A stretch of 64,000 nucleotides of DNA from a phage: sequence record NC_135730.1, one strand, 5' to 3'. The position numbers and the translations under genes are program-made. Each line of letters begins with the position of its first letter. Positions within the stretch are counted from its first letter, which is position 1. Below are positions 3,487-60,807 of this stretch, piece after piece. The notes beneath the pieces are model-generated. The model ran no database searches, was not told the origin of the DNA, and saw nothing but the letters and a program-made list of their open reading frames with translations.

Positions 3487-3815
3487 CAGAGATCATCGTT
3501 TCAACTGCAGGGTATGTATTCCTGACAATCATTGCGCTGGCTATTCTGGTGGCGGTGTATGGATTTGTTATCCTGCCTATTCTTGAGACATTTAGTTTGT
3601 GTCGGTGTTGGAGAAAAGCTTACGGACCACAACCGTGGAAAGACTGGTTCCATTTGGTGCGTATAGCGTTCTCTTATGCCTATGACCACTCTAGCAGTGC
3701 ATGCGTAACCGGGTACCATGCCTACAACTGGAACTGGGAAGGGCTGGGGAGATGGACTGTTACAAAAACTATACCCTTACGGTTGTACAAAGGAAAGAAC
3801 ACACTGGGAGCCTGA
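3483..3815 (+). CDS. hypothetical membrane protein
   Basis: 110-aa track ORF with hydrophobic N-terminal segment. Confidence 0.5.
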   Translation: MTEIIVSTAGYVFLTIIALAILVAVYGFVILPILETFSLCRCWRKAYGPQPWKDWFHLVRIAFSYAYDHSSSACVTGYHAYNWNWEGLGRWTVTKTIPLRLYKGKNTLGA

Positions 3816-4416
3816 TATTTTAAGTTATCAGGTTGCCAGAGATCAGGAGGATTTCTAAAATGGATTTCCTCCTTTTGATATTTTACCTGCCAGGATATTT
3901 TAAAATCCTTAGAAAATCAGAAAATGGATCGAAAACTAAAATGGATTTTTCAGAGTAGGCGCGACAAGCTGAATCACTCATCCTACCGTTTGCACCATAT
4001 TCCAGACCACCATTATAGATTTCCCGCACATGCTTACATCTCGCTACTAGAACTTCCTCCACTTACCCTTGACCTTTTATAGCAATAATCCAACCACTAT
4101 CTTGAAGTTGCGGTGCAGCTTTCCAGGTACTCGATCTGTTTTTCGTTTCAAAGATTGAATTTTCTGAAAATTTTTCTCGATAAATTTCTCAGTACTCGAT
4201 CTGTTTTTCGTTTTCTGAATCGGATTTTCTGGAAATCGCTCCGGCTCTTGGCCTAAAATTTTTGGGGACGAAATCGATTTTTCGTTTTCAGAAATGGATT
4301 TTTAAAATTTCTATACGGGAATATTTTATGGGATACTGTTTTATAGGAAATTGTTACGGAGGGTAATTAGCGTGCTAATTAAATTTATTAAATGCGAGGA
4401 GTTCTCATTTAGAATT

Positions 4417-7926: not shown

Positions 7927-8187
7927 ATGCGTAAATTGAAAAATTTTGATAAGGTAGATGTAGTACTGAATAATTTTTACTACTGCAATAATAAAGCCGT
8001 TTGGTGGCGTGATAGTTCCACCGATAAAGTTAAGGCGCGCTTTCTCCAAGGGCACTGGCAAGGCCGTCCAGTGATTAAAATCATGGGGCAATTGGTAGCG
8101 TTTAAAAATTGCCGCCGTGTTGATGACGTTGAAGAGATTTTAAGCATTTTGCGCCACAATAATTTAAAAAATAGTGTTGACAAGTAA
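7927..8187 (+). CDS. hypothetical protein
   Basis: 86-aa track ORF; AAGGAG RBS. Confidence 0.65.
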   Translation: MRKLKNFDKVDVVLNNFYYCNNKAVWWRDSSTDKVKARFLQGHWQGRPVIKIMGQLVAFKNCRRVDDVEEILSILRHNNLKNSVDK

Positions 8188-8204
8188 ATCTCGATAAGTA
8201 TACT
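8177..8204 (+). promoter_or_regulatory. sigma70-type promoter with leader hairpin (about 8215-8233)
   Basis: TTGACA, 16 nt, TATACT; hairpin ggcgggaaaacttcccgcc. Confidence 0.6.
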
Positions 8205-8261
8205 TAAACACACAGGCGGGAAAACTTCCCGCCACTAACAAAGAAAATAGGAGAAAATATC

Positions 8262-8885
8262 ATGACCACCGTTAACATTACCACAGGTTACAATTTATCT
8301 TTCGACGTGCTGACCGATGAACAAAAAGAAAAAGCTATTGAAATGGTCCGCGAAAGAGAAGAACACAGCGGGGATAACTTTTTTGCAGAAAGTGTAATTG
8401 AAGACTATAAAGAACATATCTTTCCAGAGTATGGCCTTGAAGATACCAAGGTACATTGGTCCGGCTTTTGGTGCCAGGGCGACGGCGCGTCAATCAGTGC
8501 GGAAAACGTGGATTTAGAAAAATTCTTGCGTAAAGTCAAGTCTCTGACTAAATTCCGCTCAATTCGTCACTTGTTCGGCACAATGCACGATGGCGAGCTA
8601 TCCGCAAGTGTTGAGCGTGATCCATATAGCCGCTATAGTCACGAAAACACTGTAAGCGGGTACATCGATACTACATGGCTAGACCTGACAGCCAAGCAAG
8701 AAAGTAAGGTTGAAGAGCTGGAAGAGCTGATCACCGAGACGGTACGGGAGCTATCCCGCAAGGTTTATGTAGACCTGGAGGAGGCCTATCTAGAACAGTT
8801 CACTACCGAAAACCTGATCGGCCTTATTGAGGCCAATGATTGGCGGTTTGATGTGGATGAATATGGAGAGATGAGTTTTTCATAA
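8262..8885 (+). CDS. hypothetical acidic protein
   Basis: 207-aa track ORF; largest gene of the early array. Confidence 0.7.
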   Translation: MTTVNITTGYNLSFDVLTDEQKEKAIEMVREREEHSGDNFFAESVIEDYKEHIFPEYGLEDTKVHWSGFWCQGDGASISAENVDLEKFLRKVKSLTKFRSIRHLFGTMHDGELSASVERDPYSRYSHENTVSGYIDTTWLDLTAKQESKVEELEELITETVRELSRKVYVDLEEAYLEQFTTENLIGLIEANDWRFDVDEYGEMSFS

Positions 8886-8974
8886 ATAAAGTGTTGCAAT
8901 AATCTAAAAACTTGCTATATTAAAACTCAAGGGGGCAAGACGTTTGCCCCACACAAAACAAAGAGGAAAACATT

Positions 8975-9355
8975 ATGAAAAACACTACTAAAGCTATTGA
9001 CACCGTTATGTTTAACCTGGTTACCTTTCGCGAGGATATGAAAGATCTTCCACGTGAAACAGTGTGCGATCACATTGAAAACTATCGCAAACTAATCAAA
9101 GAGTTGCCTTTAAAACGTGACCAGTATGCGGCTAACGCTATGCTCAACGCCATGATCAAAAAGATGATTCAGTGTGATTTAACCCTGGCTTATGATTATG
9201 CAGGTGGTCGTTTTGCAGTATACAATCAGCCCGTGCCTGGTATGGGCACCACCGAAGAATTGCACGCGCTCAATCTAAAACAAGACGTGTGGGATAGTAT
9301 GCCCCGCGTGGTGGTGTGGGCAGAAAGCGGAAAGATTTACGGCGATAATTTTTAA
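8975..9355 (+). CDS. hypothetical protein
   Basis: 126-aa track ORF; upstream TTGCAA/TATATT promoter and leader hairpin. Confidence 0.65.
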   Translation: MKNTTKAIDTVMFNLVTFREDMKDLPRETVCDHIENYRKLIKELPLKRDQYAANAMLNAMIKKMIQCDLTLAYDYAGGRFAVYNQPVPGMGTTEELHALNLKQDVWDSMPRVVVWAESGKIYGDNF

Positions 9356-49675: not shown

Positions 49676-49969
49676 TCAAGACTTTTTAGTCTTTCTTGGA
49701 GAGCTTTTTGTTGATCTTTTCCTTTTGTGGTAGATTCCAAGTGCAGCGTTTTCTTGGGCGCACGTTTTAACAGTTCTCAGACAAGAACTTTCAGCTTTAG
49801 GCAGGTTTAACTCCCACCAACCAAGCCAGTAAAGTTCTGATTCAGACAACTGCTCAGATTCAGCCTTCCGATACAAGGCTTGCATACCTCTGATGATATC
49901 GTCCAGAGGTGTATCGAATACAAAAGCTGTCTTATCGAATTTCTCTTTTACAGGTCTCTTAGCCATCAA
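49676..49969 (-). CDS. hypothetical protein
   Basis: 97-aa track ORF. Confidence 0.55.
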   Translation of the reverse strand: MMAKRPVKEKFDKTAFVFDTPLDDIIRGMQALYRKAESEQLSESELYWLGWWELNLPKAESSCLRTVKTCAQENAALGIYHKRKRSTKSSPRKTKKS

Positions 49970-50423
49970 GGTAACCCTCTATCCACGAAAAGTCAGTCTT
50001 CCATTCTGGAACTTTACTAAGCTCACGCCACTCTGCAAAGCAGTCTCGGTAATACGCCTCTGCCATACCTTTGGTGATCTTATTCACCTTAGCCAACTGA
50101 TTAACTGCCTGAGCATACTTTCCACGGATATTTGCTAACCCAGGATGCACCGATGTGTGACAATCTGGGCACAACGCTATCAGTCCGACAAGCCGGATCA
50201 CTCCCTCTTCGAAAGTGTAAAGTTCATGACACTCCACTGGGTGTTTGCTGCCTTTACCGCCGCACACCTCACAGGTGTAGTTGGCTTCTCTATAGCACTT
50301 CTTGCGGATCTTATCCCACTCACTCTTCTTTACAGCGTTTCGGAGGTTATTATACCAAGCTGTTTCTGGGATCAGTTGCACAATAAGCCTGCGTTCAGAC
50401 TTCATTAAACGTCCGTCTTCCAC
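49959..50423 (-). CDS. putative HNH/Zn-finger nuclease
   Basis: CEVCGG...HPVECHELYTF...CPDCH. Confidence 0.45.
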   Translation of the reverse strand: MEDGRLMKSERRLIVQLIPETAWYNNLRNAVKKSEWDKIRKKCYREANYTCEVCGGKGSKHPVECHELYTFEEGVIRLVGLIALCPDCHTSVHPGLANIRGKYAQAVNQLAKVNKITKGMAEAYYRDCFAEWRELSKVPEWKTDFSWIEGYLDG

Positions 50424-51296: not shown

Positions 51297-52580
51297 TCAT
51301 TCAAGCACCTCCCAAGTATCTGGGTTAACATTTCGGACGCAGATACCGACAGGGAATTGGTAGTTGTTGTCTTCTGTCCTTGCTTGGTATTTGAAGGTGA
51401 CAAACTTGCCGATCATTTCCTGCATCCTGTCATAGCTACGCTCCTCGTGCGTGCCTTTCATCTTCATTTTAACAACAATACCTTCCTTGTCAACGCAGAT
51501 AAGAACACCTTCATCATTCTTATCTTTCTCAACGTCAATAACTTTCACCTCTGCGTCGTTGAACTTTTTCCATTTCAATGCTTCAGATGTTCGCTGACCG
51601 TACTCGTATTTACCGCAGAAATTACGCATGATAGTACCTTCATATCCTTCGGACATGAATATACCAACAGATTCTTCGCAATGATCAACTGTGTACGCAA
51701 GCTCTGCGTCAACAACCTTGATATGGTCAAGCATCAGAGTGGTAACGGTATCCTCTGCATCCATAAGATCCTTGCAGCGTCCAGACTCTGTTTCTGGATC
51801 CCACCACACCTTGTCGCTAGGAATATCAAAAATGTGATACTCCAGATCGTAGCTACAGTATCCACCGTAACGCAAATCATCACGAACAGGCTCAACATCG
51901 ACAGGAATATCTACCTTGTTGAAGTTTTTGTATGTTGATAAGCCTGCCTTAATTGCTGCATGACGGCGTTTTTTATCTGCCTCATAGTCTTTATCGATCT
52001 CGGCCTGAATCTCTTCCTGTGTGCGCCACCGTTTAGCAAGAGACACTATTTTCTGCAAAGGAAGACCATGAATGTATAGTTCCCCATCAAGTTGTTTAAT
52101 CCCAGTGGTAGAATGGAAAGAACGAAGTTGCTCTAAAAGCTTTCCTTGAATAGGGTAGGACTTATTACCACGGGAAATAAATTTAGGCTCACCATTTTGG
52201 AAAACAACAAGCAGACGAAGGCCATCTAACTTACGCAAGATCCAGCAAGGTAATTTAAGTGCCTTGCCACGCTTCAGGTAGTCATGCACCAGCATAGGTA
52301 AAAGATCAACACCCTGCTCGCAATCTTCCATGTTTTCAACATACCCCAGACGGACTTGTTTTTCCCACTTGCTGATAGCCTCAAGCTCGGCCTGTTGCTC
52401 AGCTGTAGTCTCGTTGGCACGACCTACGTTTTTAGGTGTACATACCGTCTCTTTGTACTGCAATTTACCGTCAAGCTTGCCAAACTCTACGATAACCTTT
52501 TCGCCATCAGTGAATACTTTCCACTGTTGGTAGCTGCCATCTTTGTTCAGTGCGTACAGTGTTGTTTTGATTTGATGCAT
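51297..52580 (-). CDS. ATP-dependent DNA ligase
   Basis: adenylation motif I KLDGLR; 427 aa. Confidence 0.8.
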   Translation of the reverse strand: MHQIKTTLYALNKDGSYQQWKVFTDGEKVIVEFGKLDGKLQYKETVCTPKNVGRANETTAEQQAELEAISKWEKQVRLGYVENMEDCEQGVDLLPMLVHDYLKRGKALKLPCWILRKLDGLRLLVVFQNGEPKFISRGNKSYPIQGKLLEQLRSFHSTTGIKQLDGELYIHGLPLQKIVSLAKRWRTQEEIQAEIDKDYEADKKRRHAAIKAGLSTYKNFNKVDIPVDVEPVRDDLRYGGYCSYDLEYHIFDIPSDKVWWDPETESGRCKDLMDAEDTVTTLMLDHIKVVDAELAYTVDHCEESVGIFMSEGYEGTIMRNFCGKYEYGQRTSEALKWKKFNDAEVKVIDVEKDKNDEGVLICVDKEGIVVKMKMKGTHEERSYDRMQEMIGKFVTFKYQARTEDNNYQFPVGICVRNVNPDTWEVLE

Positions 52581-53144: not shown

Positions 53145-53206
53145 AACTAACTACCTCACTGCATACTTTCCATAATAAGTAAAGCCGGGTAATCCCGGCT
53201 ATGTTG

Positions 53207-53920
53207 TTAAATATACTCTGTTACATCCTTGAAGCTCGAAGGCTTCATGATCTTACCTTTACTGTCAAGGAATATGATAACTTTATTACCGTTGTAGAAT
53301 TCTTCCTTGGCAACAAAACCTTCATATCGACCATCAAAGCGGCGTTCAAGATCTTTAATCTCCAACTCGATTAGTTGTTCAGCAGGCATATCTGCACTGG
53401 CACCGTGTGAATACCGTAGATGGTTGACCCGTGCAAACTTGCTGTCATTCGATTTGAGAACCTTACGCATCATCCCGCACACATCGCCGCGAAGCTGGAA
53501 CAGCAAAGCTGTTGACAACTCTGCTAAGCGGTAAGCAGACGCTCTTTGCTTAGAGGTGTTTTTCGCAGCGATCAGTGTATCATAGAACTCGCCGATCTTG
53601 AACTTAAGACCTCGTGGATTATCAAACAGGTTTGACCACTTTTCGTGATTATCATTAACAAGATAAGCGGCATAACTTGTGACAACGTGAAGATCGCAGG
53701 CCTCTTTTAGCAGGTGATCTCCACCATCACCTTTCTCCAGCTCTTCCAAAACCTCATTGAACTCTTCCTCAATGAAGCTAAGCTGTAATTCGAATGGCGT
53801 GTATGATTTTTTCACTTTAGCTGCCACACGGTTCCAGTTTTCCACCCAATTGGCAGACCAAAGGTAGTTTTCAGGCTGAGACAGTTTTTCCAGGTTGTCG
53901 ATCAGTTTAGTATTCAGCAT
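53207..53920 (-). CDS. hypothetical protein with MazG-like all-alpha NTP pyrophosphatase motif
   Basis: EEEFNEVLEELEKGD...LLKEACDLHVV resembles MazG/HisE EExxE repeats. Confidence 0.35.
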   Translation of the reverse strand: MLNTKLIDNLEKLSQPENYLWSANWVENWNRVAAKVKKSYTPFELQLSFIEEEFNEVLEELEKGDGGDHLLKEACDLHVVTSYAAYLVNDNHEKWSNLFDNPRGLKFKIGEFYDTLIAAKNTSKQRASAYRLAELSTALLFQLRGDVCGMMRKVLKSNDSKFARVNHLRYSHGASADMPAEQLIELEIKDLERRFDGRYEGFVAKEEFYNGNKVIIFLDSKGKIMKPSSFKDVTEYI

Positions 53921-53933
53921 TAAAGGTCTCCTT

Positions 53934-54695
53934 TTAAAGTTCCATAAAGTTTTCTACAGTTTCAATAAATGCTTTATCAGAGAAAGCGTCAACAGCACCG
54001 TTAAACCATACAGGGATCCCGCGATCCTCATATTGATAAAGGTCGCTACGTGAAATGCCACTTCCATCTGCACTCTGCGAATCATACTTGTTTACAATCA
54101 GCAGTTTTGTTCCTTTACAAGTAGCAGGAAACAATTCCCAGTTAAAATTAATAACTGTGTTAGAACAACCCACTAGGATCACCATATCATTGCTGGTGAG
54201 AGATGTCAACAGGTCATACATGTCTGTATACTTAGGAGCAACCTCGCCGAAGAACACTACATTGGGCTTAACCCAGGTATACTTGCCTGTATCTACCTCC
54301 GTGTATCCGATATTTTTAATTACATCATTACCTTCAGCATCTTCGTAGGTGATTTCAGGCAAATACCCGTGGACATGTAAAATATCTTCATGTTTTACAC
54401 CAGCCCGCTCCAGCAAATCATCTACATTGGTGGTAAGGTTGATCACACGACCAGACCAGCGGGAATACCACTCAGCGATCCGAAGATGTGCAAGGTTAGG
54501 ATCAACACTGCCCAGAGCTACACGACGTGCATTGTAAAAGTCATGCACCTTGTAGTAGTTCTTGGCAAAGGTGTGGATGTTGCACACCTCATCGATGCTG
54601 AAATTCTCCCACATTGCAGTGCTACCAGATCGGAAAGTGGGAATACCAGATTCAGCGCTCAAACCAGCACCGGAGATAATAATCAGTCGTCGCAT
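53934..54695 (-). CDS. Sir2-family NAD-dependent deacylase/ADP-ribosyltransferase
   Basis: GAGLSAESGIPTFRS NAD-binding motif, TTNVDDL, HG. Confidence 0.75.
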   Translation of the reverse strand: MRRLIIISGAGLSAESGIPTFRSGSTAMWENFSIDEVCNIHTFAKNYYKVHDFYNARRVALGSVDPNLAHLRIAEWYSRWSGRVINLTTNVDDLLERAGVKHEDILHVHGYLPEITYEDAEGNDVIKNIGYTEVDTGKYTWVKPNVVFFGEVAPKYTDMYDLLTSLTSNDMVILVGCSNTVINFNWELFPATCKGTKLLIVNKYDSQSADGSGISRSDLYQYEDRGIPVWFNGAVDAFSDKAFIETVENFMEL

Positions 54696-54703
54696 AAGTG
54701 TCC

Positions 54704-55054
54704 TCAGTAGATGTTTTGTTTAATCTCTATTCCAAACTTTTTAAACGAGTCAGCTGCAAGCATGAATTTACGAGCCGCTGATGGGTTAGAAGTATGCACG
54801 AAAATCTTCACGTTGTCAACTACAGGGGGCTTACCAAATACAAATTTTTCCTCCAACATAGATAGGCAATCGTACCCTTCGAACAACTCTCCAAGGTCGT
54901 TGTCCATGTGCCACTCAGAAACGCGTCTGTAGAGCTTTCTATTATCGTTAATAAAATCTATAAACTCGGAGGAATTCTTTAGCCAAACAGCGTCTTGGAG
55001 CCCGTAATTTGACGGATCTCTCAAGTCATCCAGCCACACAATCAACTTCTTCAT
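54704..55054 (-). CDS. hypothetical protein (possible flavodoxin-like fold)
   Basis: 116-aa track ORF; IVWLDDLRDP motif. Confidence 0.5.
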   Translation of the reverse strand: MKKLIVWLDDLRDPSNYGLQDAVWLKNSSEFIDFINDNRKLYRRVSEWHMDNDLGELFEGYDCLSMLEEKFVFGKPPVVDNVKIFVHTSNPSAARKFMLAADSFKKFGIEIKQNIY

Positions 55055-55986
55055 TGCATATAGTTCTCGTTGTGGAAATAGTAATCAAGTATCTCACGGC
55101 GTTCCTGCTCCAGGAGGCAGTTCCACACATCTTCTGTGTAATTGTTACGAATGAAGTTTACCATGCCGTAAAACTCTTCGTCAACACGTTTAAAGATATC
55201 ATCATCCCAAATCTTCCAAGCTTTACCCCTCATTACGGCCTTCCGTGCCAGGTAGTATGGAGACTTGATCTTCAGCTGCAGGTCATAAGGGTAGTAAGGC
55301 TTACGGATCATATACCCTTCGCCCATTGTTTCTGCAGCTAATTCTTTTGCATAGCTGAACGGGATTTCACGCACAGTGTGAGGACGTTTTGCACCAAGGT
55401 ATTTGGCAATCCCATCTAAAGCTGCTTCTGGTAGCATTATTCCAGAATCATTATATCTGCAACCTATCAAATATGCGCCATGGTCTTCTTGAACAATATG
55501 CGGATCTGAAGGGTGACAAATTTCAAACATGAATGTCATGTTTTCATTGCCCATAACCTTCTTGATAAGATCTAAATTACCACATTGCTCTTGGATGGTT
55601 TCCTTTGCAAGGTTACAATATGGAGAATCAAGAGACCCGGTTGTTGAGAACAATAGGTCACCTTTATGAGATGATACCACACCAAGGAATCCGTTCTTTT
55701 TCTCTACCGCCGTCACAAGCTTATTGTCAGGCAGGTTGGTGGAGTTTTCTCCCAAGTTAAACACTTTTGTGAAGGGCCATGCCACAACATTCCCTTCATT
55801 ACCTACAACAATGCCTCGGCACTCCAGCAGACGAGGAGACAAATGCCATAAATTGTTGTAAAATACTTTTCTGGCATATTTATAGATCTTTAATCCAAGA
55901 TCTGGGTAATATCTGCTGGTTACAAGACCTTTGTCAACTAGGTCGTCTGCATTAAAATACTTCATCATGCGTTCCTCATTTGTCAT
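55051..55986 (-). CDS. putative RNA ligase (Rnl1/Trl1-type nucleotidyltransferase)
   Basis: motif I KKNG, motif IV EGYMIRK, motif V LKIK; separate from the KLDG DNA ligase. Confidence 0.55.
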   Translation of the reverse strand: MTNEERMMKYFNADDLVDKGLVTSRYYPDLGLKIYKYARKVFYNNLWHLSPRLLECRGIVVGNEGNVVAWPFTKVFNLGENSTNLPDNKLVTAVEKKNGFLGVVSSHKGDLLFSTTGSLDSPYCNLAKETIQEQCGNLDLIKKVMGNENMTFMFEICHPSDPHIVQEDHGAYLIGCRYNDSGIMLPEAALDGIAKYLGAKRPHTVREIPFSYAKELAAETMGEGYMIRKPYYPYDLQLKIKSPYYLARKAVMRGKAWKIWDDDIFKRVDEEFYGMVNFIRNNYTEDVWNCLLEQERREILDYYFHNENYMQ

Positions 55987-56029
55987 TTTGTCAGTCTATC
56001 CTGCCACACAAATAACCTGGTGTCAACAC

Positions 56030-56058
56030 TTGAAATTAACAAAACAGTTGGGTATACT
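56030..56058 (+). promoter_or_regulatory. sigma70-type promoter in divergent intergenic region
   Basis: TTGAAA, 17 nt, TATACT; a TTGACA box for the minus-strand RNA ligase lies back-to-back. Confidence 0.55.
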
Positions 56059-56087
56059 ATCGTTGAAATTAAAACGGAGGATTACTA

Positions 56088-56497
56088 TGTCTAAAATGCT
56101 ATATATCGTGCGTGGTCTACCAGGGTCTGGCAAATCAACACTGGCAAATGCGCTATCTTTAGACGGTCTGTATCCACATTTTGAGAACGACATGTTCTGG
56201 TACGACGATGATGGAAATTATAACTGGGGTGCAAGTAAAGTAACACTTGCAGCAAAATGGTGCAAAGATAACGTAGAAGATATGATGCGTATGGGATACG
56301 ACCGTATCGTGGTAAGTAATACGTTTACAAAAGAAAAATATGTGCAAGAATATATTGACATGGCGATCAGTCATGGGTATAGTTATACCGTGATCGTGGT
56401 TGAAAACCGCCATGGTAATAAAAGCATTCATGATGTTCCAGACAGGGTTGTGGATCGTATGGAACGCCAGCTTAAAAACTGCATTAAACTTAAATGA
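56088..56497 (+). CDS. polynucleotide 5'-kinase-like P-loop kinase
   Basis: GLPGSGKST resembles T4 Pnk kinase domain GCPGSGKST; ACGGAGGA RBS. Confidence 0.6.
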
Positions 56498-56504
56498 GGA
56501 ATGT

Positions 56505-57059
56505 ATGAAATACTTTGTAACAAGCGACACACACTTTCTCCACCAGCGGGTCATGGAGTTCGATTCATGTCAAAAACACAGATCTCAGTATGATCACAAT
56601 CTTGACAGTATGAATGCGGGAATCATCACCAAGTGGAACTCTGTTGTGTCACCTGCAGACACTGTGTTTCACTTGGGAGATATTGCGTGCACTAATGATA
56701 AGAATATCAACAAATTGCTCCCAGATGTTCTAAATATGTTGAACGGACATATTATTCTTGTTCGTGGTAACCATGACACAAGGACGACTGTCAGAATTAT
56801 GAAAGAGTTCGGTCATGAGGTTGTAGATTATTACGAGCTTCGCCACAACAAGAATTTGATCTGTATGAGCCATTACCAGTTTGCAAAGTGGAACAGAAAG
56901 CCTCACGGATCAGTCCAACTGTTCGGTCATGCTCACGGAACCACACAGCAGTTGTTTGGCAGGCAGTTTGATGTCGGTTGGGATGTGTGGGGGAGACTCT
57001 TACCATTGGAAGAGGCATACCGTATTGCAATGAGTCTTGCTATTGACAGCGGGGAGTAA
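56505..57059 (+). CDS. calcineurin-like metallophosphoesterase
   Basis: ATG at 56505 (MKYFVTSDTHF) within track ORF; GDI, GNHD and HAHG metal-binding motifs. Confidence 0.7.
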   Translation: MKYFVTSDTHFLHQRVMEFDSCQKHRSQYDHNLDSMNAGIITKWNSVVSPADTVFHLGDIACTNDKNINKLLPDVLNMLNGHIILVRGNHDTRTTVRIMKEFGHEVVDYYELRHNKNLICMSHYQFAKWNRKPHGSVQLFGHAHGTTQQLFGRQFDVGWDVWGRLLPLEEAYRIAMSLAIDSGE

Positions 57060-57106: not shown

Positions 57107-57457
57107 ATGAAAGATGGGGATAAGCTGCTATATCTTAAAGTCCCCCTTGAAATACTGTCTATGTCAAAAGTTTTGAATGACACAACTGGGGAGGTTGTTG
57201 TTCTTGACTTATATGACAAGATCGTATACTGCTACCTGCACAACTGGTATAAGCTTGGAGGAAATTCACGCTTCACACCCAGCACAAGGAAAATTGCAGC
57301 AGATGTTGGGATAAAGAAAACAAAAGCAGCAGCGTGCGTTAAAACTTTAGAATGTGCAGGAGTGGTTGAAATATCCACACAAGGGAGAGGTAAAAGATGT
57401 ACATTTTCCAAAGTTTTGCCACCAGAAGAGGTTATTCGAATGTCAACAACTGGTTAG
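57107..57457 (+). CDS. hypothetical protein, possible DNA-binding protein adjacent to iterons
   Basis: 116-aa track ORF; CAGGAGA RBS. Confidence 0.55.
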   Translation: MKDGDKLLYLKVPLEILSMSKVLNDTTGEVVVLDLYDKIVYCYLHNWYKLGGNSRFTPSTRKIAADVGIKKTKAAACVKTLECAGVVEISTQGRGKRCTFSKVLPPEEVIRMSTTG

Positions 57458-59994: not shown

Positions 59995-60069
59995 GCCCTG
60001 TTAGCTTAGTGGATAAAGCAGCGGCCTTCTAAGCCGTTGACACTGGTTCGAGTCCAGTACGGGGTGCCA
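59995..60069 (+). tRNA. tRNA-Arg (anticodon UCU)
   Basis: manual cloverleaf; anticodon loop CTTCTAA; T-loop GGTTCGAGTCC; CCA present. Confidence 0.7.
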
Positions 60070-60073
60070 AATT

Positions 60074-60160
60074 GGGGAGTTATCCCGTAGAGGTAGCGGT
60101 GTAGACTGTAAATCTATTGTCATTGCGACTCGGGTGGTTCGACTCCACCACTCCCCACCA
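60074..60160 (+). tRNA. tRNA-Tyr (anticodon GUA), type II
   Basis: acceptor GGGGAGT/ACTCCCC; loop CTGTAAA; long variable arm; T-loop TTCGACT. Confidence 0.7.
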
Positions 60161-60274
60161 AATTTATATTTTTAGATGCATAAATAATACAGATAATGGC
60201 ATTGATATTTATCGTCGTTTATACTAGTCACTAACTGCTCGAAAATCAGTGTCATTATCAGTATAATTTATAAA

Positions 60275-60365
60275 GGAGGGTAGGGAGCAATGGTGCTCAA
60301 GCGGTCTTGAAAACCGTCCCGTTGAGGATGACTCGATGATGGTTCGATTCCATTACTCTCCGCCA
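60275..60365 (+). tRNA. tRNA-Ser (anticodon UGA), type II
   Basis: anticodon arm CGGTCTTGAAAACCG matches E. coli tRNA-Ser as recalled; long variable arm. Confidence 0.75.
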
Positions 60366-60463
60366 CATTGTTGACCTTGTAATTAAGCGAAAGCCGGAAG
60401 CAGAACCGGATTATCAAATGTTACAGTCGTCATCGCCGACTAGCAACATGGTCAACATACTGA

Positions 60464-60562
60464 GCTAGGTAAGCCCTTTGGCAAGGGCGAGGATTTTTAA
60501 TCCTGAAAATAGACGAGGTAGTCGTTGAATACATAGGTGGTTCGATTCCATCGCCTAGCACC
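60464..60562 (+). tRNA. atypical type-II-length tRNA-like gene, anticodon ambiguous (UUU or UAA)
   Basis: good acceptor, D and T arms; anticodon stem only 4 bp; about 29-nt variable region. Confidence 0.4.
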
Positions 60563-60567
60563 TTTTT

Positions 60568-60643
60568 GCTGATGTAGCACAATCGGTAGTGCAATTGATT
60601 TGTAATCAATAGGTTGTAGGTTCAAGTCCTGCCATCAGCACCA
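60568..60643 (+). tRNA. tRNA-Thr (anticodon UGU)
   Basis: all four stems pair cleanly; loop TTTGTAA. Confidence 0.8.
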
Positions 60644-60644
60644 A

Positions 60645-60719
60645 GGCCCTGTAGCTGGAAGGTTCAAGCAAGCGACTCATAATCGCCAGACGGTGGTTCA
60701 ATTCCACCCAGGGCCACCA
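60645..60719 (+). tRNA. tRNA with CAU anticodon (Met or lysidine-Ile)
   Basis: acceptor GGCCCTG/CAGGGCC; loop CTCATAA; T-stem GGTGG/CCACC. Confidence 0.7.
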
Positions 60720-60730
60720 AATAGTAAATA

Positions 60731-60807
60731 CTCCGCGTAGCTCAGCTTGGTAGAGCGCCTGATTTGGGATCAGGAGGTCGAGTGTTCGAATCACTCCGTG
60801 GAGACCA
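60731..60807 (+). tRNA. tRNA-Pro (anticodon UGG)
   Basis: C1:G72 first pair typical of bacterial tRNA-Pro; loop TTTGGGA; clean cloverleaf. Confidence 0.8.

Follow-up and report, generated by a model that had tools for sequence, protein, structure and literature searches.

Why would a phage carry an RNA ligase, a polynucleotide kinase and a phosphoesterase side by side, and would the three proteins act on the same broken ends? The question is raised by a locus in phage sequence record NC_135730.1, of which one strand of 64,000 nucleotides was analyzed (this whole stretch is the window referred to below, and positions are counted along it unless another locus is named). A minus-strand gene for a predicted Rnl1-family ATP-dependent RNA ligase (55051-55986, an open reading frame, or ORF, of 311 aa) lies across a 100-bp divergent intergenic region (55987-56086) from two plus-strand genes, one for a stand-alone P-loop 5'-OH polynucleotide-kinase-like protein (56087-56497, 136 aa) and one for a calcineurin-type binuclear metallophosphoesterase (MPE) resembling Aq_1665 (56505-57059, 184 aa). 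A first-pass annotation had proposed that these genes form a three-gene RNA-repair cassette, and the ORF map and motif coordinates bear out the three ORFs and every motif that it quoted. We consider it likely that the genes encode, on separate proteins, a heal-and-seal module for RNA repair that restores translation during infection. The kinase would phosphorylate 5'-OH ends; the MPE, aided or replaced in rV5-like phages by a neighboring cREC (cyclic-phosphate-processing receiver-like) protein, would open and remove 2',3'-cyclic or 3' phosphates; and the ligase would reseal the break via lysyl-AMP (Lys96), with translation then restored in the infected cell.

Catalytic families of the three proteins

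The ligase matches Pfam RNA_lig_T4_1 (E 1.6e-14) and carries the motifs KKNG (residues 96-99; 55690-55701), EGYMIRK (residues 223-229; 55300-55320) and LKIK (residues 238-241; 55264-55275). As had been claimed for it, it is distinct from the ATP-dependent DNA ligase at 51297-52580, a separate protein that matches DNA_ligase_A_M. Translation probably begins at M7/M8 (ATG at 55968), for a product of about 305 aa, because a GAGGA Shine-Dalgarno sequence precedes this codon and both the homologs and the annotation of the near-identical phage Bas56 begin there. Single-sequence searches of the PDB with either the ligase or the kinase returned only noise, and family profiles were needed. With a profile of 30 ligase homologs (41-49% identity), T4 Rnl1 was the sole PDB match (E 1e-13), confined to its adenylyltransferase domain (T4 residues 30-249), and fold comparison likewise finds that this domain of the phage ligase resembles the Rnl1 type. 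Invariant across the 30 homologs are R57, K74, F76, K96, G99, E155, E223, G224, K239 and K241. The catalytic set comprises Lys96 of motif I (KKNG), E155 of motif III, E223-G224 of motif IV and K239/K241 of motif V, and K96, E155, E223 and K239/K241 align with K99, E159, E227 and K240/K242 of T4 Rnl1, although motif I of the phage protein carries Asn where T4 Rnl1 has Asp. R57, K74 and F76 align with ATP-contacting residues in T4 Rnl1's N-terminal sub-domain, in which Arg54, Lys75 and the adjacent Phe are essential and contact ATP (PMC6379707). Judged by its sequence, the protein is an Rnl1-family ATP-dependent RNA ligase but not a T4 RnlA equivalog.

The kinase gene is preceded by a GGAGG Shine-Dalgarno sequence 7 nt upstream of its start, and its product matches Pfam AAA_33 (E 8.9e-10) and contains a GLPGSGKST P-loop at residues 10-18 (56114-56140). 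A profile of 32 kinase homologs found T4 Pnk as its best full-length match in the PDB (E 5e-8), followed by the Rhizopus RNA 5'-OH kinase (9D8A), Pnkp1, PSTK, the CthPnkp kinase domain and mammalian PNKP. All 32 homologs retain G10, G13, G15, K16 and D35, the last of which aligns with the catalytic Asp35 of T4 Pnk; with this profile match and an invariant P-loop, the initial description of the protein as a T4-Pnk-like P-loop kinase stands. The 136 aa make up a kinase domain only, with no fused C-terminal DxDxT (HAD) 3'-phosphatase.

The MPE starts 7 nt after the kinase stop. It matches Pfam Metallophos_2 (PF12850) and Metallophos (PF00149) above their cutoffs (E about 2-4e-6; like the Pfam matches of ligase and kinase, well past what chance would produce) and contains the motifs SDTHF, LGDI, GNHD and GHAHG; D8, H10, D59, N89, H90, H123, H142 and H144, the two-metal motif set, are invariant in its homologs, in agreement with its earlier assignment to the calcineurin type. 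Aquifex aeolicus Aq_1665 (1XM7; E 5e-22) is the sole solved structure related to it by sequence. The AlphaFold2 (AF2) model, with a predicted local distance difference test (pLDDT) score of 94, likewise has Aq_1665 as its first fold neighbor, followed by Mre11, MJ0936, LpxH and GpdQ. We dropped an attempt to read the substrate from structure, which returned only Aq_1665, a protein with no assigned function, and generic MPE folds; it is from genomic context that we infer that the MPE heals RNA 2',3'-cyclic or 3'-phosphate ends.

Linkage across phage lineages and the minus-strand partners

That the three proteins act together, as first suggested from the window alone, is supported by their linkage in other phages. 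We surveyed 83 loci with ligase relatives of 35-49% identity, located the homologs of each window protein and dereplicated the set at 80% ligase identity, leaving 41 lineages with at least 3 kb of sequence on either side of the ligase. Of these lineages, 39 have the kinase (34 of them no more than 1.5 kb from the ligase) and 37 have the MPE (32 of them within that distance); both stand beside the ligase in 35 of the 41, and no lineage is without both. Linkage is kept throughout even as gene order varies, with kinase-ligase-MPE in 16 of 51 clusters and MPE-ligase-kinase in 14 of 51. Two lineages encode kinase-ligase fusions of 421-432 aa (L037, 2209-3474; L046, 6881-8179), with the kinase N-terminal and the ligase C-terminal, and PHROG 8238 shows the same layout, with a kinase match at its N-terminus and a ligase match at its C-terminus. 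Because clustering is kept across ligases of only 35-49% identity and kinase and ligase occur as fusions, there is strong evidence that ligase, kinase and MPE share one pathway. By contrast with this widespread core, Sir2 (7/41), cREC (6/41) and MazG (8/41) are lineage-restricted additions, confined to rV5/phi92-like phages of ~145 kb. The family membership of the window proteins, their intact catalytic residues, the operon structure, the conserved linkage and the gene fusion are established.

Both fusion lineages are without the MPE. In seven loci of the fusion group (L042, L050, L051, L053, L055, L057, L058), a phage tmRNA gene lies ~5 kb downstream. The next ORF after the L037 fusion, at 3550-4356, contains a PHA02142 OB-fold domain (E 7e-27) of a kind that typifies another family of RNA ligases, and after it a match to an intein-splicing domain (E 1.7e-5).

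In the window, the unit is larger than the three genes initially proposed, with cREC, Sir2 and MazG-like genes following the ligase on the minus strand. The start of cREC (54704-55054, 116 aa; PF20274, E 3e-15) overlaps the ligase stop in an ATGA at 55051-55054. A gap of 8 nt separates it from the Sir2-family gene (53934-54695, 253 aa; Pfam SIR2, E 7e-28; PHROG 2162, E 1.5e-108), and a further gap of 13 nt leads to a gene for a MazG-like nucleotide pyrophosphohydrolase (53207-53920, 237 aa), which matches PHROG 671 (E 5e-22), gave no match in the Pfam search and is the last gene of the ligase operon. Directly after its stop, a GC-rich hairpin of 7 bp (6 of them G-C) at 53183-53200, reported on both strands in a scan for terminator-like structures, is probably the terminator of the ligase-cREC-Sir2-MazG unit. 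From this arrangement the ligase is predicted to be translationally coupled to cREC and co-transcribed with the cREC, Sir2 and MazG-like genes.

These partners suggest a different 3'-end chemistry or an additional one, and they probably process unusual end groups or by-products derived from NAD or ADP-ribose. The function of cREC is a published prediction, and MazG has been named as a member of this neighborhood by Iyer et al. (2022; PMC9503650), who propose that the sirtuin removes RNA 2'-phosphates in the manner of KptA/Tpt1. The Sir2 protein of the window has its NAD motif (GAGxS...GIPxFR) and its catalytic His (in HVHG) intact; it contains only 3 Cys and no CxxC pairs, and hence lacks the CxxC...CxxC zinc ribbon, which fits the 'distinct clade of sirtuins' described in the same work (PMC9503650).

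A Pfam census of 265 neighboring ORFs returned PRPP synthetase (8), NAPRTase (7, of which two in each batch also match NAMPT_N), SIR2 (7), cREC (7), the HAD_SAK_2 'Swiss-army-knife' RNA-repair phosphatase (3), Macro (3), Nudix (1) and Tad3 (1). HAD_SAK_2, a family specific to RNA repair, adjoins the ligase in some lineages, and a second RNA ligase is also among the neighbors. Genes for NAD+ salvage (PRPP synthetase with NAPRTase/NAMPT) adjoin the trio in several unrelated lineages (e.g., L002, 7565-8452 and 9707-11431; L004, 852-3595), one of which also encodes the Thoeris inhibitor Tad3. This company suggests either a shared counter-defense island or an NAD-dependent repair step. The homolog of the window DNA ligase appears to be split in L003, where 7983-8435 and 8447-9079 match its residues 1-142 and 246-427.

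The 4-kb region around the cassette is 95-99% identical to more than 100 genomes of Vequintavirus (rV5-like) myophages of E. coli, near-identical genomes including AlexBoehm/Bas56, PDX and FV3; in Bas56 the trio is annotated as 'RNA ligase', 'polynucleotide kinase' and 'putative phosphoresterase'. Eighteen unannotated 'Campylobacter phage' records (GenBank MG065635-MG065682; host given as C. jejuni) are also 97-98% identical to the rV5-like region. Their host attribution looks doubtful and possibly reflects contamination or mislabeling. The sign of the GC skew changes at ~56 kb, where the coding strand also switches, and the cassette straddles both. Among the related loci surveyed, the divergent arrangement of ligase and kinase is found only in the rV5 group. 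A promoter scan of the divergent region returned one weak sigma-70-like site, a consensus match only, upstream of the kinase (56030-56058, plus strand), and no usable site for the ligase. After the MPE, on the same strand, 57107-57457 encodes a 116-aa helix-turn-helix (HTH) protein (DUF6945/HTH_36; PHROG 12838 'replication initiation protein', E 2.5e-80) that is absent from the cassette neighborhood in all other lineages examined. On the minus strand, between the endolysin/DNA-ligase block and upstream genes, lies a 154-aa Cys/His-rich ORF (49959-50423), called a 'putative homing endonuclease' in Bas56.

Proposed substrates and competing readings

Which breaks would such a module mend? By analogy with the action of T4 Pnkp/Rnl1 against PrrC, it is plausible that the cassette counters host anticodon nucleases, and more so because many tRNA-cutting defenses of E. 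coli are now known. Seven plus-strand phage tRNA genes (59995-60807; ARAGORN) do lie about 3 kb away, as had been reported, beginning 2.9 kb past the MPE stop. They comprise Arg-UCU, Tyr-GUA, Ser-UGA, an atypical Lys-UUU-like tRNA, Thr-UGU, a CAU tRNA (Met according to ARAGORN, tRNA-Ile in the Bas56 annotation) and Pro-UGG. The first-pass annotation had drawn on this proximity as support for a countermeasure; but of 60 related loci, only 23 have a tRNA gene at a distance of up to 8 kb, so that we rejected adjacency as a conserved feature and count it as weak support.

The atypical tRNA-like gene deserves separate mention. It is 99 nt long (60464-60562, plus strand) and is called 'tRNA-??? (atcc)' by ARAGORN, and manual reading gives a UUUUUAA anticodon loop (Lys-UUU) and an extra arm of ~25 nt. 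It scores 29.4 bits against the Rfam tRNA model (threshold 29 bits), and its minimum free energy fold is a cloverleaf with an extra hairpin (z -3.4). The gene is conserved in more than 110 rV5-like phages, in which its annotation is inconsistent: Lys, OTHER, TERM or none. We considered whether it might contain an intron and require a ligase, and rejected this on its continuous cloverleaf and extra arm. tRNA-Lys(UUU) is the target of PrrC, and for this reason the 99-nt Lys-UUU-like tRNA could serve as a nuclease-resistant substitute.

The proposal that the locus supplies a set of end-healing and sealing activities holds in part. Protein families, catalytic motifs and conserved linkage speak for it; the likeness to particular known enzymes does not extend to an MPE of the lambda-phosphatase/CthPnkp type or to a ligase with the tRNA-recognition C-domain of T4. 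The enzymatic activities, the RNA substrate and the counter-defense role of the cassette are predictions, and several observations weigh against a heal-and-seal module acting on cleaved tRNA. Besides the 37 of 60 related loci with no tRNA gene within 8 kb, Arg38 of T4 Pnk, which contacts the 5' terminal nucleotide, has no counterpart in the phage kinase, which carries W38 at this position, with an aromatic residue or His in its homologs. The kinase family, with at least 7986 matches, far exceeds the ligase family, with 1678, and therefore also works in other contexts. The search with the MPE model found neither lambda-phosphatase nor a Pnkp phosphatase domain among its fold neighbors, and the nearest relative, the structural-genomics protein Aq_1665, has no assigned function and is silent on substrate. 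Against the T4 RnlA equivalog model TIGR02308, which has a cutoff of 242 bits, the ligase reaches 38 bits. It has a short helical C-terminal domain of ~69 aa after motif V and is without the T4-type all-helical C-domain (about aa 255-374), a 120-aa unit that confers tRNA specificity on T4 Rnl1 and also defines the Rnl1 clade (PMC6379707). Finally, our search of the literature found no biochemical or genetic data for any rV5-like repair protein.

A different 3'-end chemistry is the strongest of the alternatives, and we regard it as unlikely but well short of negligible. The ligase may be the viral counterpart of a eukaryotic Trl1-type (Rnl6-like) tRNA ligase and not of T4 Rnl1, in which case the MPE and/or cREC would be cyclic phosphodiesterases only. 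In such a Trl1/Tpt1-like pathway, the MPE and/or cREC would convert the cyclic phosphate into a 3'-OH,2'-PO4 end by opening it; this 2'-phosphate would be required by the ligase and left at the junction; Sir2, or host KptA in phages without Sir2, would remove it with NAD+; and MazG and cREC would clear the ADP-ribose-derived by-products. Comparison of the ligase family with Trl1-LIG sequences taken from PDB chains (a yeast Trl1 sequence served only to query the PDB) gave an hhalign probability of 86.5% (E 4.6e-6), pairing K96 with K148, N98 with N150, E155 with E218, H163 with H227, EGYMIR with EGFVIR and K239/K241 with K323/K325. The phage family retains N98 and H163 without exception, whereas T4 Rnl1, which cannot join 2'-P ends, has Asp and Ile there. 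In Trl1 (Cth numbering), His227, Arg334 and Arg337 enforce the 2'-PO4 requirement, and Asn150 also touches the phosphate mimic (PMC6379707, PMC11404444). At ~69 aa, the phage C-domain is nearer in length to the 79 aa of Trl1 than to the 120 aa of T4, genes for Sir2, cREC and NAD salvage recur beside the trio, and the idea of Sir2 acting as KptA is already published (PMC9503650). However, the Trl1 relation is visible only by profile-profile and fold comparison: the hidden Markov model search of the PDB that finds T4 Rnl1 misses Trl1 even with the E limit raised to 10. Trl1 has a distinctive five-helix C-domain; when the C-domains are compared by themselves, no similarity of sequence is seen (E 0.55), and we gave up homology of this domain to Trl1 by sequence and retained it as a structural hint only. 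The Arg334/Arg337 pair also has no secure counterpart, since the global hhalign alignment sets the RxxR segment opposite a gap; only ungapped extension places R/K248 opposite Arg334 and V251 opposite Arg337, with invariant K249 and R253 nearby. Moreover, most trio lineages are without Sir2 or cREC, and the 265-ORF census found no KptA or 2H family gene. If the Trl1-like reading were true, the junction 2'-phosphate might transiently shield the repaired RNA from re-cleavage, and NAD+-dependent removal of a 2'-phosphate by a zinc-less Sir2 would be a new sirtuin activity.

The remaining explanations keep the enzymes but change their task, and we hold each of them to be improbable. That they serve the phage's own RNA metabolism, for instance by maturing phage tRNAs (the Lys-UUU-like one among them) or transcripts or by checking their quality, would suit the seven-tRNA cluster 2.9 kb away, the retention of its 99-nt member with an extra arm in more than 110 rV5-like phages and the tRNA or tmRNA genes near several related loci; but this is a very unlikely account given that most related loci have no nearby tRNA gene, that neither an endonuclease partner nor an intron was identified and that splicing is not needed for the atypical tRNA, whose fold is an unbroken cloverleaf plus extra arm. 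There is similarly little chance that the trio acts on DNA ends, or that the ligase is mainly a non-catalytic tail-fiber attachment factor like T4 gp63. T4 Pnk-type kinases and mammalian PNKP, both among the kinase matches, do also use DNA, Mre11 is a fold neighbor of the MPE, which has a weak NCBIfam match to the ligase-associated PdeM (E 2e-4), and an ATP-dependent DNA ligase lies within a few kb of the RNA ligase in 18 of the 41 lineages; yet the phage already encodes a dedicated DNA ligase, the fold and motifs of the cassette ligase belong to RNA-ligase families, and the associated cREC, HAD_SAK_2 and second RNA ligase genes are linked to RNA repair. Several GenBank records do name the ligase a 'tail fiber attachment catalyst', but the invariance of all its catalytic residues argues against a purely structural role, and the cassette is located outside the tail genes. 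Just as improbably, the genes could be independent members of a counter-defense or auxiliary-metabolism island with no single pathway, as might be read from neighbors such as NAMPT, PRPP synthetase, Macro, Nudix and Tad3, a mix typical of accessory islands. Against this stand the placement of the kinase (34/41) and the MPE (32/41) within 1.5 kb of such divergent ligases, their continued linkage despite rearrangement, the fusions and the predicted translational coupling of genes in the window.

Relation to known repair systems

As an in-silico prediction, the cassette is not new. A sirtuin-centered predicted RNA-repair neighborhood was described by Iyer, Burroughs, Anantharaman and Aravind (2022; PMC9503650), and its type 2 ('Escherichia phage V5', 'Proteus phage Mydo') contains a sirtuin, a T4-like tRNA ligase, cREC, a nucleotide kinase, MazG and a calcineurin-like phosphoesterase. 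The window carries this very locus, with all six genes at 53207-57059. Whereas that study puts the sirtuin at the center and describes the phosphoesterase as 'occasional', our survey finds a core of ligase, kinase and MPE in 35 of 41 lineages.

A stand-alone kinase, an Aq_1665-type MPE and a short ligase together make up a widespread alternative design, found in at least 41 divergent phage lineages. Bacterial defense employs many tRNA-cutting effectors, including PrrC, RloC, PARIS, OLD, retron-Septu, Cas13 and others, and to our knowledge the only experimentally understood phage answer to tRNA cutting is T4 Pnkp/Rnl1. Characterizing the cassette would show how coliphages of the rV5 group, which are therapeutic candidates, escape RNA-targeting immunity, and would reveal what the Aq_1665 phosphoesterase family and cREC do. 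It would also test for 2'-phosphate-dependent, NAD-linked ligation in phage-infected bacteria, a chemistry that we know so far only from eukaryotic tRNA splicing. KptA occurs in E. coli without explanation, and a 2'-phosphate pathway would bear on its presence there.

Compared with T4 Pnkp and Rnl1, the phage cassette differs in each part. In T4 the kinase is fused to a HAD (DxDxT) phosphatase and Rnl1 is separate, which corrects the initial statement that all of these activities are found fused in T4 Pnk/Rnl1; in the cassette the kinase stands alone, a binuclear metallophosphoesterase unrelated to the HAD enzyme takes the place of the phosphatase, the ligase is without the 120-aa tRNA-specificity C-domain and has Asn for Asp in motif I, and cREC, Sir2 and MazG are added. 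The bacterial Pnkp-Hen1 systems (Clostridium thermocellum Pnkp; Capnocytophaga Pnkp1-Rnl-Hen1) combine the same three chemistries as those predicted for the cassette, with a calcineurin-superfamily phosphoesterase replacing the HAD phosphatase, and the profile of the cassette kinase finds the kinase domains of CthPnkp and Pnkp1 at E about 2e-7 to 7e-7. Bacterial Pnkp unites the kinase, a lambda-phosphatase-like MPE domain and an Rnl4 ligase in one polypeptide and is partnered by a Hen1 methyltransferase, an organization that the cassette does not share. Set against fungal and plant Trl1/Tpt1, the cassette is without the 2H cyclic phosphodiesterase and without Tpt1/KptA, but the fold of its ligase matches Trl1 no less well than T4 Rnl1, and over more residues, and the two share a KxNG motif I, a His after motif III (nine residues past the Glu in Trl1) and an EG[FY]xIR motif IV. 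Finally, in the split system of Mucorales the ligase (RNL) and the RNA 5'-OH kinase are separate proteins, as they are in the phage cassette.

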